Virus record (IMG/VR): IMGVR_UViG_3300020029_000019
Span: 1 to 6,144 of that record
Source of the DNA: a virus
DNA length: 6,144 nucleotides
Direction: 5' to 3' (one strand)
The position numbers and the translations under genes are program-made. This document shows, one piece after another, positions 500-6,144 of this stretch. Under the pieces are notes generated by a model that did no database searches, had not been told where the DNA came from, and saw nothing but the letters and a program-made list of their open reading frames with translations. Numbering within the stretch: position 1 is the first letter of the stretch; each line of letters opens with the position of its first letter.

Positions 500-2176
500 T
501 TAAACCATACGGTTGAAAATATTATTAGCATCATTAAGCTTCTTGTGTTTAATCATATTACAACAGAATGTCGAACTACGGTACCGGAGCTGCTCAAGAA
601 TCTGAACCGTTTCACGTGAAATATTCGACAAGACATCAATCTCCTGCCCGTACGCAGGCAACGCAAACATACAATCCGAAATCTCAGGGTATTGGGCACG
701 GATGTTATATGCATCTCGTAAACTTTCATAATTCGCTTTCTTTTCATATTCTATGCCTGTTTTAATGATAAAATTAATACGACCGGAGTAAGCACTAACA
801 TCAGAACCGAAGTCAGGCAAATGCCAGTTACGGAAGAATTTAGAGACATATAGGAACAACCTATACAACTTATTAACAAAAGATTCAGCATCGAAATCAA
901 CAGAACAGTAACCAAACCTAGTAGAACACCGAGAAGCATGTAATACAATCTTGTCATCATCAGTAAGAATAGGATTAACCTTAAGATATTTATAATAAGC
1001 ATTGACAAGGCCTAGAATCGAGTCTCTGTAGTGAATAATCCCGAATCTTGCAACTCTTTGCGGCGTGCGATGCACAGCGAGAAGAATTCGAGCAATCGCA
1101 GCACTATCGTCATTGCGAGCAGACGAGAATCGGGGCAGTAAGGTACGGATATACGACATGGGTGGAGTTGACCGAACACTGACGCCGTTGAAGTTATAGA
1201 TTCGTCCGTTAACGACAGAATCGATTTTTTTCTCAATTTGAGAATAAGGGTCGTCGTCTTCCATGAAATCGCAACCTTTCTCAAAAAATCCGACAGACGC
1301 TCGCGATTTGAGTCTAAACGCGCGGCATGAGCGATATAAAAGGGGAGCAGCACTAAGGCTGTTAACGTAACTCGCAACGTACGAACCAGCTCCACCAGCG
1401 GCACGTTGGAAATCTGAACGACCGAGCTTCCAACTCTTATCGTGACAGTGTCGTAGAACCTCGGAGACTTCGTCCGAGTTTGTGAATAATAAGAGATGAT
1501 AATGCGGGCGGAAATGAACGGGTCCGTACTCACCCACAGCGTAGAAATGTAACGTTTCATAAGAACCTAGTGTTTGGAATAAATGTTTACGTAAACGTTT
1601 AATATAATTCTGAACATCAACATAATTCAGGAAGGGAATAAGGTTATCACGACCGTATTGCGAAGAAACGGGATAGTCCGTTTTGCCAACGGCTTGCGTC
1701 TTATAGATAAAACTACGAATAGCATCCATACTAAGGAACCAATTATCCCTAACAGGGACATATTCCTTAATTTCACGGTCATACGGCACAGTGCCTTGAA
1801 CCTGCTCGAAGAATATATGATGCAACATGGAGTTATCATCACATTTATATTCAGAAACAGAGATATACTGATGATGTTCATCGCCAAAATGAGAATCTCC
1901 TGAAATGCCTAAAACATCCTCATATTCACTATGAAGAACCTTACAATTCATAAGAGGAATGTGTACATTGTCATAAGTAAGAGTTACAAAATAAGAATAC
2001 TTAAAAGCACTTCCAGCGGTCTTCACACGCATGGACGCTTTTTTAGCACGCTTATGGATACAATAATCACATTGACCACAATCCACGGCAATGCGTGCAC
2101 CGGTGTATTTGTTCGTAATAAACGAACGATATTGACAATGGTCAACAGCCTTAAACAAATCAGGAGAAAATTTCAT
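500..2176 (-). CDS. Replication initiation protein VP4 (HUH rolling-circle endonuclease, phiX174 gpA-like)
   Basis: 558 aa, ATG at 2176..2174, TAA at 502..500. Motif I is FVTLTY (aa 63-68). The HUH motif is GEYGPVHFRPHYHLLLF (H225/H227, nt 1504..1496). The two-tyrosine motif is GSYVASYVNS (Y266 nt 1381..1379, Y270 nt 1369..1367), with the Y-x3-Y spacing of the phiX174 gpA catalytic tyrosines. There is an N-terminal Cys cluster, CGQCDYC (aa 33-39). Confidence 0.93.
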   Translation of the reverse strand: MKFSPDLFKAVDHCQYRSFITNKYTGARIAVDCGQCDYCIHKRAKKASMRVKTAGSAFKYSYFVTLTYDNVHIPLMNCKVLHSEYEDVLGISGDSHFGDEHHQYISVSEYKCDDNSMLHHIFFEQVQGTVPYDREIKEYVPVRDNWFLSMDAIRSFIYKTQAVGKTDYPVSSQYGRDNLIPFLNYVDVQNYIKRLRKHLFQTLGSYETLHFYAVGEYGPVHFRPHYHLLLFTNSDEVSEVLRHCHDKSWKLGRSDFQRAAGGAGSYVASYVNSLSAAPLLYRSCRAFRLKSRASVGFFEKGCDFMEDDDPYSQIEKKIDSVVNGRIYNFNGVSVRSTPPMSYIRTLLPRFSSARNDDSAAIARILLAVHRTPQRVARFGIIHYRDSILGLVNAYYKYLKVNPILTDDDKIVLHASRCSTRFGYCSVDFDAESFVNKLYRLFLYVSKFFRNWHLPDFGSDVSAYSGRINFIIKTGIEYEKKANYESLRDAYNIRAQYPEISDCMFALPAYGQEIDVLSNISRETVQILEQLRYRSSTFCCNMIKHKKLNDANNIFNRMV

Positions 2177-2181
2177 AATTA

Positions 2182-2487
2182 CTAACGTTTATCAATCACC
2201 TGACGACGATTACGGTCACCAAACGAAATATGAATAAATGTAGGGTACAATATTAACTGGTCAAACACATGAACATTATCCGAAAAACTATGAATATGTT
2301 CAAGTAACCGGTTATAAGTAGTAGAACCATAAGGTTTCATATCAATAGCCTCACCAAATAGATGCTGGGAATTGAAAACACCACCAGCGGCCTTATTCTC
2401 AGCGATAGAACGCTTGGCACTTGTTATAGTAAAATGCAAGTTAAAGCATAACAAATGCTCAAGAAAATCCATAAGAGTAGAATTCAT
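2182..2487 (-). CDS. Peptidase M15 family (zinc D-Ala-D-Ala carboxypeptidase / LAS-fold cell-wall hydrolase), endolysin-like
   Basis: 101 aa, ATG 2487..2485, TAG 2184..2182. ITSAKRSIAENKAAGGVFNSQHLFGEAIDM matches the M15 signature (itSgyRs...N...GG...S.H..G.A.D). The H-x6-D zinc pair is H42 (nt 2364..2362) and D49 (2343..2341). The C-terminal LILYPTFIHISF supplies the third ligand, H86 (2232..2230). Caveats: the domain is minimal, and Ser rather than Asp follows the last His. Confidence 0.75.
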   Translation of the reverse strand: MNSTLMDFLEHLLCFNLHFTITSAKRSIAENKAAGGVFNSQHLFGEAIDMKPYGSTTYNRLLEHIHSFSDNVHVFDQLILYPTFIHISFGDRNRRQVIDKR

Positions 2488-2567
2488 AAACCAATAGCAT
2501 TAAGGATATAACCAAGAGCGGCAGAAACAGCACCAATCACAATCTTCCAAATATTATTCCTTTTCAT
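2484..2567 (-). CDS. 27-aa single-pass membrane peptide (MKRNNIWKIVIGAVSAALGYILNAIGL), possible holin-like or membrane partner of the peptidase
   Basis: ATG at 2567..2565. The TGA stop (2486..2484) overlaps the peptidase ATG (2487..2485) as ATGA. 18 of 27 codons end in T, matching the genome-wide T-ending codon preference, so this is the coding frame here. A basic N-terminus (KR) is followed by a ~22-residue hydrophobic helix. It is the 3' portion of the 74-aa track ORF 2484..2708. Confidence 0.5.
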   Translation of the reverse strand: MKRNNIWKIVIGAVSAALGYILNAIGL

Positions 2568-2751
2568 TGCTTTGAGTTTTAAGTTCAACGAAATCATTTT
2601 CTTCTTTAATCGAATCCACAATAACAATAAGACCCAACGAAGAAATTCGCTCAGAATAATTTCCAAGACCATCGAGAGAATTAACGATATAAGGCGAAAT
2701 AACATCACGACCTGTGTTTTTGTCCTTAACTGAGATAATAAATTTCTGCAT
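2554..2751 (-). CDS. Hypothetical protein, 65 aa (no recognisable family)
   Basis: ATG 2751..2749 is the first start codon after the non-coding region and promoter candidate. It has strong T-ending codon usage (ATT TCG CCT TAT ATC GTT AAT TCT CTC GAT GGT CTT ...) and a balanced, soluble-looking composition. It overlaps the 27-aa ORF by 14 nt. Confidence 0.6.
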   Translation of the reverse strand: MQKFIISVKDKNTGRDVISPYIVNSLDGLGNYSERISSLGLIVIVDSIKEENDFVELKTQSNEKE

Positions 2752-2878: not shown

Positions 2879-2946
2879 AGTTGTGCGTTTATGGACAAGA
2901 GTAGGAGAATCCGAGAGGATAACTCGGATTTGCTTCGCACACAACT
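2879..2946. other. Nested inverted repeat
   Basis: The outer stem is AGTTGTGCG (2879..2887) paired with CGCACACAACT (2936..2946): 9 bp with a 2-nt bulge. The inner stem is a perfect 8 bp, AATCCGAG (2908..2915) with CTCGGATT (2923..2930), and a 7-nt loop AGGATAA. Confidence 0.6.
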
Positions 2947-2996
2947 AGGGGCTTCGCTTAATTAACAAGTGGATGTATACAGAGGTGTATAGGCAC

Positions 2997-3036
2997 GGCA
3001 AGGCAGAGGCTGTCTTGCCTTTGCGCGCCGTCGCGC
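2997..3036. other. Two adjacent GC-rich hairpins
   Basis: GGCAAGGCA (2997..3005) pairs with TGTCTTGCC (3011..3019): 9 bp including one G-T at 3003/3013, with loop GAGGC. Next, GCGCG (3023..3027) pairs with CGCGC (3032..3036), with tetraloop CCGT. Confidence 0.6.
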
Positions 3037-3045
3037 TAAAATACC

Positions 3046-3082
3046 GGAGCGGGGCGCTCCTATAAGGAAGTCGCTCCGCTCC
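3046..3082. other. 11-bp hairpin with a competing local fold
   Basis: GGAGCGGGGCG (3046..3056) pairs with CGCTCCGCTCC (3072..3082): 11 bp with one G-T at 3053/3075 and a 15-nt loop. Alternatively, GGAGCG (3046..3051) pairs with CGCTCC (3055..3060) around a 3-nt loop. Confidence 0.6.
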
Positions 3083-3094
3083 ATTTTCGAACAG

Positions 3095-3141
3095 GCCCTA
3101 CGCGGGCGGCGGGTGTATATCGCTCAAACGCCGCGATGGGC
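3095..3141. other. Long-range GC stem
   Basis: GCCC (3095..3098) pairs with GGGC (3138..3141), and CGCGG (3101..3105) pairs with CCGCG (3131..3135). A 2x2 internal loop separates the two stems, which enclose 25 nt including GGGTGTATA. Confidence 0.5.
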
Positions 3142-3219
3142 TTCTAGTCCTGAAGTACGCTATTGTCTACCTAACTTAGGAATAATCTAAAATACACAAG
3201 AAAATAGATTTGCCAACGA

Positions 3220-4323
3220 CTAATAACCGATACCATTAGAACTATTATAAATAGTAGTGTTACGAGGACCGTAATCATTACGAAAAATCTGAGGACCGGG
3301 TCGCATAGCTCCAATTACATTACCGGCACCTTGAAAAATACGAGACGTATAATCTATCGCATTACGCAAACCATATGAATCAAAATCTTTCTTAGTATTA
3401 CCAGCAGACCACTTATAATAATCACGAATAGCCTTATCCTTAGAATACTGGATATTTTTACGATGATTCACATTTTTATAATCCCATAAAGAATCATAAT
3501 ACTGTGTATAATAAGCCATATTCGTAGCACTTACAAGAGCATTAGCAGTACCAGAAGCTATTTCATTAGAAATACGCTGGCCTCGAGCCTGAGCGGCGAC
3601 CAGAATAGCACGCTGAAGTTCAGTCTGGACTTGTTTTTCAGTCAGAGCACCCTGCTGGACAAGATTATAAAGATACTGGCTCTTAGTGAGCAAATCGGCC
3701 TGTTGATTTGCGTCCATATATTTATTAAGCACAGCTTGAGCATCAGATTGTAAGTAAACGTGTGTTGTCTGAGCCGCAGACAATTTACCAGCAGCAACCG
3801 CATTTTCAAGTTCCTGACGTTCTGTAGACTGGTCCAACTCCGCAGAAATGCGACCTGTTTCAGAATTCCAATAACCAGATTCACCGACGCCAATATTCTT
3901 ATAATTGGTATCTCCCATAATTTTCCTTGCCAAAAGAGGAGTAAGAGTCTCAATTTGACTAGATTCAGAAATAGACTTACGAGCCTGGGCAAATGTTGCT
4001 AACGCGGAATCAATGCCAGACAAATCCACATGAACACCTTGCATAGCCGGAGTAGTAGGGATAGTAGCCTGAGGAGAAGGGCCGGGAGAAGCAGAAGTAC
4101 CAGCACCAGTCTGGTGAAGGAATGGATTCAAACCTCGGACAATCTGAGCAGCAGGAGAATTATATTGGTTTTGATAATCAACCATATATTTCTGCCATTG
4201 TCGAGACAGCTGAGCCTCATTTTGGGCAGCCACACGATTCTGTGTAGCGATTAATTCATTAGTCGCATTCGCATTAGACTGCGACATAGCATTAATCATA
4301 CTGCCAAACAACGAACCTATCAT
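3220..4323 (-). CDS. Minor capsid / DNA pilot protein VP2
   Basis: 367 aa, ATG 4323..4321, TAG 3222..3220. A Gly/Ser-rich N-terminus is followed by QNQYNSPAAQIVRGLNPFL, the N.P..Q....GLNP.L signature of gokusho/alpa-type VP2. The centre is Gln/Ala-rich and looks coiled-coil. It sits downstream of VP1 and the scaffold-position gene. Confidence 0.8.
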   Translation of the reverse strand: MIGSLFGSMINAMSQSNANATNELIATQNRVAAQNEAQLSRQWQKYMVDYQNQYNSPAAQIVRGLNPFLHQTGAGTSASPGPSPQATIPTTPAMQGVHVDLSGIDSALATFAQARKSISESSQIETLTPLLARKIMGDTNYKNIGVGESGYWNSETGRISAELDQSTERQELENAVAAGKLSAAQTTHVYLQSDAQAVLNKYMDANQQADLLTKSQYLYNLVQQGALTEKQVQTELQRAILVAAQARGQRISNEIASGTANALVSATNMAYYTQYYDSLWDYKNVNHRKNIQYSKDKAIRDYYKWSAGNTKKDFDSYGLRNAIDYTSRIFQGAGNVIGAMRPGPQIFRNDYGPRNTTIYNSSNGIGY

Positions 4324-4763
4324 TGAACACTAGAGGCAGGGGCGGAATCCGAAGACGGCACTGCCTTATCCGCTGCCAACAAAGACTCAGCATAAGCTGA
4401 AAGTTCAGACTTCTCACTAGCTAATTGCCGCAATACAGCCTGTCGCTCTGACATAGTCTGACAATGTCGAGAAATAATACAATTAAACCGCTCATCATCC
4501 GACATATTATCCATGGAGGTAGACTGAGTAGGATGCATTTGCGCAAGAATATTCTGGACATTCATATCGCCAAGGAGACGACGATATTTTTCTTGGTTGA
4601 GGAGAATGGAAGTCATATCCATATACATATACGAACCGTCAGACAATTTTTCCAACATAACCGAATCATATACACTAGGTTCATAACAAGGATTCCCTTC
4701 AATCAATTCAGGGGTAACAGTATCCTGTTCAAAATCAGGATTAATATAAGCAAAACTTCTCAT
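4320..4763 (-). CDS. Hypothetical acidic protein, possibly an internal scaffolding protein (VP3 position)
   Basis: I place the start at ATG 4763..4761 (MRSFAYINPDF..., 147 aa). The track start at 4775 is a TTG abutting the VP1 stop. The TGA (4322..4320) overlaps the VP2 ATG as ATGA. The protein is rich in Asp, Glu and Ser. The scaffold assignment rests only on position and composition. Confidence 0.6.
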   Translation of the reverse strand: MRSFAYINPDFEQDTVTPELIEGNPCYEPSVYDSVMLEKLSDGSYMYMDMTSILLNQEKYRRLLGDMNVQNILAQMHPTQSTSMDNMSDDERFNCIISRHCQTMSERQAVLRQLASEKSELSAYAESLLAADKAVPSSDSAPASSVQ

Positions 4764-4775
4764 AACAACACACAA

Positions 4776-6144
4776 TTAATAAGGTAAACCATTTCTATCC
4801 AAATTCTGCACAGCATACACTTGGAAATTAACATTACACAATAACTGGTCATAAGCCACGCTATAATGTTCAGTAGTAATCTGAGGCTCAAATATAGAAT
4901 TCAATTGCTGAGGACGAATCTTAAACGATTGATAACTCAATGAAGACTGGCCAGAAACTTGAATCTGAGACCCTTGAAGCGGAGCAGCCCAAGACTGATA
5001 AGCAGCATTAGGACGGAATGCACCATGAACAGTATCTACAGCGGATTTCCATTGCCAATAGCGCAAATTGTATCCAATATTGCCCTGAACAGAAGACGGG
5101 CTATTATTAAGAGTCAAAGCCGAAACAGGCTGCATACCTAACTGGTCAAAAGCAGGTTGAGGGAAATCGGAAACAGACGTACATAACAACTGAGGATTGT
5201 GGCCCTTAAGAGACCAGTCAAGCAAAGGAACAGCATGATAAACGCACATAATAACCTGATGTTCAGCACCGCAATCATAATTAATAACATGGCCAGACTT
5301 AGAGCCTACACCTTTACCAGCAATAACAGCCTGAGAGTTGTCGGCAGTCAAATTAGTGTTCAGAACCTCATTAATATTAATAACATTAGACCAACCACCA
5401 ATATAATGGGCATGGTTACCCATGTACTCGGGGGCTTTAATACCAAATTGAGCGGCCATTTGGTCTGAATAATCCTTGCTAGAGAATTGGACTACTTCTT
5501 TCCAGCGCTGGAGAAATTCAATGGCACGGATTGAGAGAGCGGAAAGGTCTGAATTAAGATGAATCTCACGAACAGAAGAAGAGGACTGCTGAACAACAAC
5601 ATTATCAGAACCACCATTATTCAATACAGGAGAAGATGGAACACCTAAAGCTAAAATACGAGTTGAACCCAAAGTAGGATCATACGAAGAAGGTAAAATA
5701 GCTACCGAACCATATTGAGAAGCAGGAAGAACACCAAGAAAATAGTCTTTAGGATAATTAGCATAGCGGAGACGAATCATATCAGAAGATAATTCGATAG
5801 AACTTTTGCCATCCCAATAATCAACATTATAAGAATAAGCTAAATGTTTCTCCCATTGAGAGTTACTGAAAAAATCAAAATAAATCTTCTGATAAGCAAG
5901 AGCAGGAAGAAGATTCAAGTTAACACTGGTACCATAAATAAGGGGGTTCTGTCCATCAGCCAATGAAGTCGTATCAAGACCAAGATACTGCATAGTAATT
6001 TCTGCCTTCTTATCATTAGAAGTACCAATAAATGAACCATAACCAAGCATATCCAACAGCTTGCAAGAGCCATAAGCAAATCCAAAGCCAGCGTCATCCA
6101 CAGTGCCAGAATCCACTCTATTACGAATTTCACCAGAAATATTG
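4776..6144 (-). CDS. Major capsid protein VP1 (F-like), C-terminal part; same gene as 1..480
   Basis: Track ORF 4776..6116 stays open upstream to the window end. Its listed first M is really an internal GTG (Val) codon in ...EIRNRVDSGTVDD.... Joining 480..122 with 6144..4776 gives 1728 nt = 575 aa plus TAA (4778..4776). The size fits the microvirus jelly-roll capsid family. So do the Gly/Ser/Asn/Tyr-rich composition and the position directly downstream of rep. Confidence 0.9.
   Translation of the reverse strand, partial: NISGEIRNRVDSGTVDDAGFGFAYGSCKLLDMLGYGSFIGTSNDKKAEITMQYLGLDTTSLADGQNPLIYGTSVNLNLLPALAYQKIYFDFFSNSQWEKHLAYSYNVDYWDGKSSIELSSDMIRLRYANYPKDYFLGVLPASQYGSVAILPSSYDPTLGSTRILALGVPSSPVLNNGGSDNVVVQQSSSSVREIHLNSDLSALSIRAIEFLQRWKEVVQFSSKDYSDQMAAQFGIKAPEYMGNHAHYIGGWSNVININEVLNTNLTADNSQAVIAGKGVGSKSGHVINYDCGAEHQVIMCVYHAVPLLDWSLKGHNPQLLCTSVSDFPQPAFDQLGMQPVSALTLNNSPSSVQGNIGYNLRYWQWKSAVDTVHGAFRPNAAYQSWAAPLQGSQIQVSGQSSLSYQSFKIRPQQLNSIFEPQITTEHYSVAYDQLLCNVNFQVYAVQNLDRNGLPY
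6024..6144. repeat. Terminal direct repeat, copy 2 (circular wrap-around)
   Basis: Identical to 1..121. The repeat lies inside the VP1 reading frame and restores it when the ends are joined. Confidence 0.97.

Follow-up and report, generated by a model that had tools for sequence, protein, structure and literature searches.

A compact M15-type zinc peptidase beside the replication gene of a microvirus, a probable endolysin preceded by a conserved small membrane peptide

The stretch of DNA analysed here (the window, 6,144 nt) holds one complete circular microvirus genome of 6,023 nt, because positions 1-121 recur at 6024-6144 as an exact 121-nt terminal repeat with 0 mismatches. All genes lie on the minus strand, in the order VP1, VP3-like gene, VP2, ORF65, 27-aa ORF, M15 peptidase and Rep (Table 1). 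The open reading frame list contained VP1 only as a 446-aa piece, the gene spanning the 1-121/6024-6144 junction. Taking VP1, VP2 and a VP4 Rep on a circular genome of ~4-7 kb as the mark of the Microviridae, we found an F-type VP1, a VP2 pilot protein and a VP4 Rep by Pfam and PHROG matches on this circular genome. It shares 73-86% nucleotide identity with GenBank microviruses from dog, lemur and human samples, over one third to two thirds of its length, and the synteny VP2 - ORF65 - transmembrane (TM) peptide - M15 - Rep is fixed across a large clade recovered from mammalian gut, faecal and vaginal samples. Scans of 185,579 species genomes yielded no prophage copies of either the peptidase or VP1. 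Our guess at the host is a member of the Bacteroidota, given a moderate similarity to the microvirus phiHBP1 and the fact that most relatives are of gut or faecal origin.

Table 1. Genes and other features of the window, with positions counted from its first letter.
Feature	Position	Strand	Description
VP1 capsid	across circular junction	-	575 aa once circularised; PF02305, PHROG 514
VP3-like gene	4775..4320	-	
VP2 pilot protein	4323..3220	-	PHROG 31272
ORF65	2554..2751	-	conserved acidic 64-65-aa protein; first gene of the ORF65/TM peptide/M15/Rep block
73-aa membrane ORF, possible	2484..2705	-	frame of the 27-aa peptide; overprinted on ORF65, +1 frame
27-aa single-pass membrane peptide	2484..2567	-	MKRNNIWKIVIGAVSAALGYILNAIGL; unannotated
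M15_3 zinc peptidase gene (predicted), compact form	2182..2487	-	101 aa; MEROPS M15A / LAS
Rep (VP4), replication initiator	500..2176	-	558 aa; PF23343 E 4e-16, PHROG 942 E 7e-32
Terminal redundancy of circular genome	1..121	.	identical to 6024-6144; VP1 crosses junction

Between VP2 and ORF65 lies a non-coding gap of 470 nt, inside which positions 2900-3200 form a GC-rich island (~54% GC, against ~33% in the flanking sequence). Folded as coding-strand ssDNA, the island forms several successive hairpins (-54.4 kcal/mol, z = -4.4), among them a GGAGCG...CGCTCC stem with a T-rich tail behind it (3060..3046), and a terminator or a complementary-strand origin are possible functions; an Rfam search of the window found nothing. 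Short ORFs of the island (MERSDF...) recur in relatives, probably owing to nucleotide conservation. The gene that follows, ORF65, encodes an acidic protein (pI 4.8; 64-71 aa across relatives) that is conserved in relatives and labelled 'hypothetical protein' in their GenBank records, and it has no match in Pfam, PHROG or NCBIfam.

The 101-aa ORF that a first-pass annotation had singled out as an M15-family peptidase is real and reads on the minus strand, a point on which that annotation was silent (MNSTLMDFLEHLLCFNLHFTITSAKRSIAENKAAGGVFNSQHLFGEAIDMKPYGSTTYNRLLEHIHSFSDNVHVFDQLILYPTFIHISFGDRNRRQVIDKR; 2487..2182). Inspection of its codons bore out the motif that had been claimed, S40-Q-H42-L-F-G45-E-A47-I-D49 together with H86-I-S88, and the three residues that could bind zinc are encoded at 2364..2362 (H42), 2343..2341 (D49) and 2232..2230 (H86), with further conserved peptidase residues at R26 (2412..2410) and D76-Q77 (2262..2257). 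The gene had also been placed directly upstream of rep, and rightly so, since Rep begins 5 nt past the peptidase stop codon. The profile comparison that had been proposed as a check gave a match to Pfam PF08291 (Peptidase_M15_3) with an E-value of 7.4e-9, its 36.1 bits exceeding the gathering score of 23.2 bits, in an alignment spanning profile positions 38-107 of 108, and PHROG 894, 'endolysin', was matched at E 2.8e-13. In terms of sequence, the M15 match is far beyond chance. A search of NCBIfam with the peptidase gave no meaningful match.

The predicted structure also favours this assignment. An AF2 model built on an alignment of 95 diverse homologues reached a pLDDT of 96.7 and a pTM of 0.87 and has the predicted LAS/DD-peptidase fold, that is, the central antiparallel sheet with flanking helices that defines the DD-peptidase/hedgehog fold. 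The best PDB match in Foldseek was 1LBU (E 2e-4, probability 1.00, rmsd 2.2 Å over 78 columns); VanY, the RB49 L-Ala-D-Glu peptidase, LdcB and hedgehog N-domains came next. LAS proteins make up most of the top of the list, which also holds unrelated matches of low probability. Against BFVD, Foldseek returned M15A peptidases, 'Microvirus mar50/52/54/59' among them. A search of the PDB with the single sequence was weak, with 1LBU at E 0.11, and a profile of the 95 homologues matched the same entry, the Zn DD-peptidase of Streptomyces albus, which we take to be the founding member of MEROPS M15A, at E 2e-12. H42 and D49 align with H154 and D161 of 1LBU, and the profile spans Sonic hedgehog from end to end as well, placing H42/D49 on H-x6-D and H86-I-S on H-C-S, motifs that supply the hedgehog zinc ligands. 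LAS enzymes draw their three Zn ligands from an H-x(3-6)-D motif and a C-terminal His, and H42-x6-D49 and H86 are invariant in both the 95 diverse and the 120 close homologues; the three residues are candidate ligands of one metal site, with indirect support through their alignment to solved LAS structures. Altogether, the ORF product is almost certainly a LAS-type zinc peptidase (Peptidase_M15_3, MEROPS M15A-like).

A 27-aa peptide encoded just upstream, mentioned in passing in the first-pass annotation, is likewise a real ORF (2567..2484, minus strand), whose TGA stop overlaps the peptidase ATG (ATGA). It was found in 34/34 close relatives examined, none of which has lost the start/stop overlap (ATGA in 33, GTGA in L010), and it is unannotated in all GenBank relatives. 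In an alignment of 33 ungapped 27-codon sequences (window included, L006 left out) there were 31 distinct nucleotide versions, with 23, 10 and 3 variable sites at codon positions 3, 1 and 2, respectively. Median dN/dS across 29 genomes was 0.18 for the peptidase; dN/dS of the peptide was 0.06, which is the stronger constraint. Its Kyte-Doolittle hydropathy peaks at 2.0 over 19 residues. Counterparts of 28-30 aa precede M15 in three divergent genomes whose peptidases are 39-48% identical (L036, positions 2494-2586; L037; L038), and they share a pattern consisting of a basic N-terminus, a Trp and then an Ala/Ser/Gly-rich TM segment.

The frame of the 27-aa peptide may extend upstream to give a form of 73 aa, in which a hydrophobic N-terminal segment and a basic loop precede the TM peptide. 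This longer frame is open, with a conserved ATG, in 25/25 ungapped genomes analysed (window included), the alternative frame stays open in only ~1% of synonymous-codon shuffles of ORF65, and third positions of ORF65 vary half as much where the two frames overlap (2.59) as outside the overlap (~5.3; Mann-Whitney p 2e-5). The 73-aa ORF looks like a real overprinted gene. Near its C-terminus, ORF65 carries a 7-residue insertion in three relatives and a 4-residue duplication in one, changes that also lengthen the loop of the overprinted ORF. We regard the 27-aa unit as the conserved core and the 73-aa form as less certain, because the longer form is interrupted in L027 and absent in L038. Homologues of the 73-aa ORF belong to no Pfam family and lie almost only on contigs of microvirus size, with two contigs reaching 10.7 and 12.3 kb, and our homologue search returned none clearly outside microvirus-sized contigs; tailed-phage cassettes therefore give no independent support for a holin function.

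By its layout the 27-aa ORF resembles a holin gene, in that it encodes at least one TM domain and adjoins the putative endolysin gene; the charged hydrophilic C-terminal tail of holins is missing, the peptide ending inside its hydrophobic segment (...LNAIGL*). Searches of Pfam, PHROG and NCBIfam with the 27-aa and 73-aa ORFs gave no significant match, the best being PHROG 'hemolysin' families at E 0.07-0.08, and neither form has significant similarity to any known holin or Sgl. We also considered a -1 frameshift that would fuse the TM peptide to the peptidase in the manner of a SAR endolysin, and rejected it: the junction GGA TTA TGA contains no slippery heptamer, the M15-frame sequence upstream is not conserved, and translational coupling through ATGA is simpler.

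What role the peptidase might play is best approached through its closest tailed-phage homologues, gp42 of Burkholderia phage KS9 and endolysins from siphophages of Stenotrophomonas and Xanthomonas, which share 38-46% identity with it across residues 21-101. The KS9 homologue ('endolysin') lies between the holin and Rz/Rz1 in a canonical cassette, and in Stenotrophomonas phage Yut1 the 'endolysin' homologue lies two genes from a holin. Lysis, which the first-pass annotation had listed among several roles, is the best reading because these closest homologues carry endolysin annotations and their genes adjoin, or stand close to, those of holins; judged from such sequence comparisons, a role of the peptidase in lysis is likely. 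An endolysin role for microviral M15 enzymes has also been proposed by others (PMC3394797; PMC11499846). The peptidase itself contains no signal peptide or TM segment (maximum 19-residue hydropathy 1.04), and since it has no hydrophobic segment for export, an endolysin role needs a membrane lesion.

We propose that, at the end of infection, the peptidase would act as a phage endolysin, reaching the periplasm through a membrane lesion and there cleaving the host's peptidoglycan at its peptide stems or its cross-links. The lesion itself would most likely be made by the 27-aa TM peptide, translationally coupled to the peptidase via the stop/start overlap, and in some lineages it may act as the longer 73-aa overprinted form. 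That the peptide serves as an export or holin-like partner of the peptidase is plausible, and we rate it at slightly short of an even chance. The explanation as a whole, a functional miniaturised LAS peptidase acting as an endolysin with export by way of the TM peptide, is the one we favour with moderate confidence, a little less firmly than the lysis role taken by itself. Yet more tentative is the suggestion that a 27-30-aa TM peptide (perhaps also in its 73-aa form) and a 101-aa peptidase make up the smallest known two-component lysis cassette of the holin-like plus endolysin type. If it were true, a 6-kb ssDNA phage would compress the lysis strategy of tailed phages into less than 400 nt, where phiX174 takes the single-gene 'protein antibiotic' route instead.

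The same enzyme could instead be associated with the virion and serve entry, opening peptidoglycan locally for delivery of the ssDNA by the VP2 pilot protein, with lysis brought about by another factor or with the peptidase active at both steps, as P5 of phi6 is. M15A domains of the same fold do occur in very large virion proteins with which tailed phages enter the cell (Gp5-like proteins with an OB-fold; 'cell wall hydrolase' proteins of 500-1,191 aa), and Gp7, an unrelated peptidoglycan hydrolase of microvirus Ebor, was found in purified virions, though in trace amounts only (PMC11980548). The homologues closest to the microviral enzyme, however, are free-standing proteins of ~150 aa annotated as endolysins near holins rather than virion proteins, the peptidase gene sits in the non-structural block beside Rep and is coupled to a membrane peptide, and a T=1 capsid is generally known to have little spare volume. 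We consider an entry role unlikely.

Equally unlikely, in our estimation, is that lysis is in truth the work of the small TM peptide (27 or 73 aa), which would inhibit peptidoglycan synthesis at a membrane step as an Sgl does, the M15 enzyme being an accessory that merely hastens or finishes the breakdown of the wall. The tighter constraint on the peptide than on the peptidase (dN/dS as given above) and its retention across deep divergence speak for such a role, as does the general character of known Sgl proteins, which are small, single-TM and often overprinted (PMC12506998; PMC10614894), much as the 73-aa form is overprinted on ORF65. Set against this, the peptide shows no sequence similarity to any known Sgl and precedes M15 in every genome of the lineage that was examined, and a 303-nt peptidase kept under purifying selection in a 6-kb genome is hard to explain if the peptide were sufficient.

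The preferred reading, a functional endolysin, must also accommodate the departures of the peptidase from textbook LAS enzymes. In VanX and the endolysin of phage T5 a catalytic acid lies 3 residues before the last His. In the microviral enzyme position 83 is Thr, so that no Glu or Asp stands 3 residues before H86, and the first His of H-x-H is replaced by Phe84. Phe84 and the missing acid are common to the whole subfamily, including the tailed-phage homologues annotated as endolysins. Similarly, the microviral F-D-Q and H-x-S stand in place of the canonical M15_3 G-G-I-G and H-x-D; the consensus of the 95 homologues (to ~31% identity) reads F-D-Q-L-I-x-Y-x-T-F-x-H-x-S, and the canonical G-G-I-G...H-x-D occurs in just 1/118 aligned homologue sequences (P0251). 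The first-pass annotation had taken the Ser after the last His as a sign of possible decay, a suspicion that does not hold, because the subfamily as a whole, tailed-phage endolysins included, has H-[IV]-S combined with F-D-Q as its consensus, and because Sonic hedgehog, a solved LAS protein, likewise reads H-C-S. D76-Q77 is nearly invariant in the subfamily; we infer that the acid has moved to D76 on the neighbouring strand, and D76 and Q77 are candidate substitutes for the second catalytic residue.

In a homologue search that covered 5.8 billion proteins, 1,718 protein clusters matched the peptidase. Among the best 120 of these 1,718 clusters, 118 are 101-102 aa long, all 120 carry a precomputed Pfam assignment to PF08291, and none is encoded on a contig longer than ~6.9 kb, with roughly half of the contigs close to 6 kb. 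Residues S23, R26, N31, S40, H42, D49 and H86 are invariant across the 95 diverse homologues, and within the best 120 clusters T22-S-A-K-R26, N31, G36, S40, H42, G45, A47, D49, D76-Q-L-I79, H86, S88, R92 and R94 do not vary. Typical homologues have 125-150 aa, and their residue ~50 aligns with residue 18-20 of the query; the query clade therefore lacks ~35 N-terminal residues, including an 'F...E...N.P' segment, and its sequence opens directly with the fold's first helix. Further compact versions (100-114 aa, 39-48% identity) are found on 6.2-kb contigs with the gene order kept. Most of the closest full-length homologues come from contigs no longer than ~5.5 kb; two are on larger ones, of 12.8 and 15.4 kb. 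Because both the compact and the closest full-length homologues are mostly on small contigs, the compact form probably arose within small ssDNA phages. On one contig of 4,614 nt (L040), a close full-length M15_3 homologue of 137 aa (P0151) adjoins a replication initiator (PHROG 20614), and the remaining ORFs match no PHROG family; this may be another small ssDNA phage lineage with the same peptidase subfamily.

A decaying, host-derived gene, as the first-pass annotation had entertained, is contradicted by the dN/dS of 0.18 and by ORFs that are intact in all 29 loci, with no premature stops, and on these grounds we reject pseudogenisation. More broadly, it is highly improbable that the protein is what remains of a host or prophage M15 gene that is decaying or has lost catalysis, whether as a pseudogene in the making or as a hedgehog-like module that binds peptidoglycan or a ligand with a pseudo-active site: the ~35 missing N-terminal residues, the Phe at the first His of H-x-H and the end-to-end alignment with hedgehog N-domains, for which we know of no established hydrolase activity, would suit such a reading, but purifying selection at that dN/dS, the uniform 101-102 aa length without stops in 118/120 of the best clusters, the invariance of all metal-ligand and substrate-site residues, the same motifs in tailed-phage homologues annotated as endolysins, and a shortened protein that is still modelled as a complete compact domain (pLDDT 96.7) all argue against it.

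A functional endolysin of this kind can be set beside several known systems. With the Zn D-Ala-D-Ala carboxypeptidase of Streptomyces albus G (1LBU) and the wider LAS group, compared here through VanX/VanY, the T5 and RB49 L-Ala-D-Glu peptidases and the hedgehog N-domain, the microviral enzyme shares the fold, the H-x6-D...H triad and the Arg of S-x-x-R, but it has only 101 aa and no peptidoglycan-binding or N-terminal extension. As a free-standing LAS enzyme it is shorter than all LAS chains matched in our PDB searches, apart from the isolated domain of VldE (107-110 residues), and its small size may interest designers of enzybiotics. The tailed-phage homologues, of ~150 aa, retain the N-terminal segment and have conventional holins and spanins as partners, whereas the microvirus offers only the 27-aa (or 73-aa) membrane ORF and no recognisable spanin. 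The very small phages provide a possible analogue of that ORF in E of phiX174 and LysM (37 aa) of levivirus M, which are small single-TM proteins and sometimes overprinted; they have no sequence similarity to it, however, and those phages do without a muralytic enzyme.

Among ssDNA phages, the only experimentally verified peptidoglycan hydrolase is Gp7 of the Rhodobacter microvirus Ebor, whose genome also encodes a 45-aa membrane protein (PMC11980548). We considered Gp7 as a characterised homologue and discarded it, as Pfam M15 does not match it and BLASTP finds no significant similarity to the peptidase (best E 1.3). Gp7 demonstrates that a muralytic enzyme is within the reach of microviruses, though not that M15 enzymes are put to this use. 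The first-pass statement that there is no characterised example thus stands for the M15 enzymes of microviruses, for which we found no enzymatic or genetic assay in the literature that we searched, and falls for microviral peptidoglycan hydrolases at large, given that the Ebor enzyme was shown to be active in 2025 (PMC11980548). An M15 peptidase in the Microviridae is also not the surprise that it had been taken for. Roux et al. described M15_3 peptidases in 11 human-associated (gut) Gokushovirinae/Alpavirinae in 2012, argued for their horizontal acquisition and noted that some of the peptidase genes adjoin an 'unknown' ORF (PMC3394797). M15 peptidases have since been reported from cultured microviruses, namely vB_RpoMi-Mini (PMC9865509), five Roseobacter CRPss phages (PMC11499846) and phiHBP1 of B. 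fragilis (PMC13064476), and GenBank relatives (Dulem virus, bajarodmic virus and Microvirus sp. records) label the gene 'peptidase'.

The cultured and plaque-forming phiHBP1 (PV598014) has VP1, Rep and VP2 homologous to those of the window genome and a peptidase of the same subfamily (38% identity over 80 aa), with the motif ...SGYRS..N..GGV..SQH..G.A.D...FDQLI.Y..FIHVS. Its peptidase (L007 84-488) is nonetheless full length, at 134 aa with the N-terminal F...E segment, against 101 aa here, and it is encoded downstream of Rep, after a soluble 54-aa ORF, rather than between VP2 and Rep, with no TM peptide before it. Such a difference in position is compatible with rearrangement or with repeated acquisition, as Roux et al. 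proposed. Closer still are the Alpavirinae and Gokushovirinae of Roux et al. and the GenBank relatives, which have the same Pfam family, the same proposed role, the same type of small circular ssDNA phage and the same gut, faecal or vaginal source. The protein identity of the peptidase is 85% to MG945488 and 58-70% to OP549867 and the Dulem viruses, with the same gene order. Nothing essential sets the window apart from these records, save that the 27-aa TM ORF is not annotated in them. The peptidase is accordingly another member of a kind known since 2012 and routinely annotated, and the locus leaves existing knowledge unchanged. What it adds is modest, namely the compact 101-aa form and a conserved, unannotated and translationally coupled membrane peptide. 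Microviruses other than phiX174 are abundant in the mammalian gut, and for muralytic lysis there the locus provides a very small test case, in the form of a 101-aa LAS peptidase and a 27-aa membrane peptide that are both strongly conserved.
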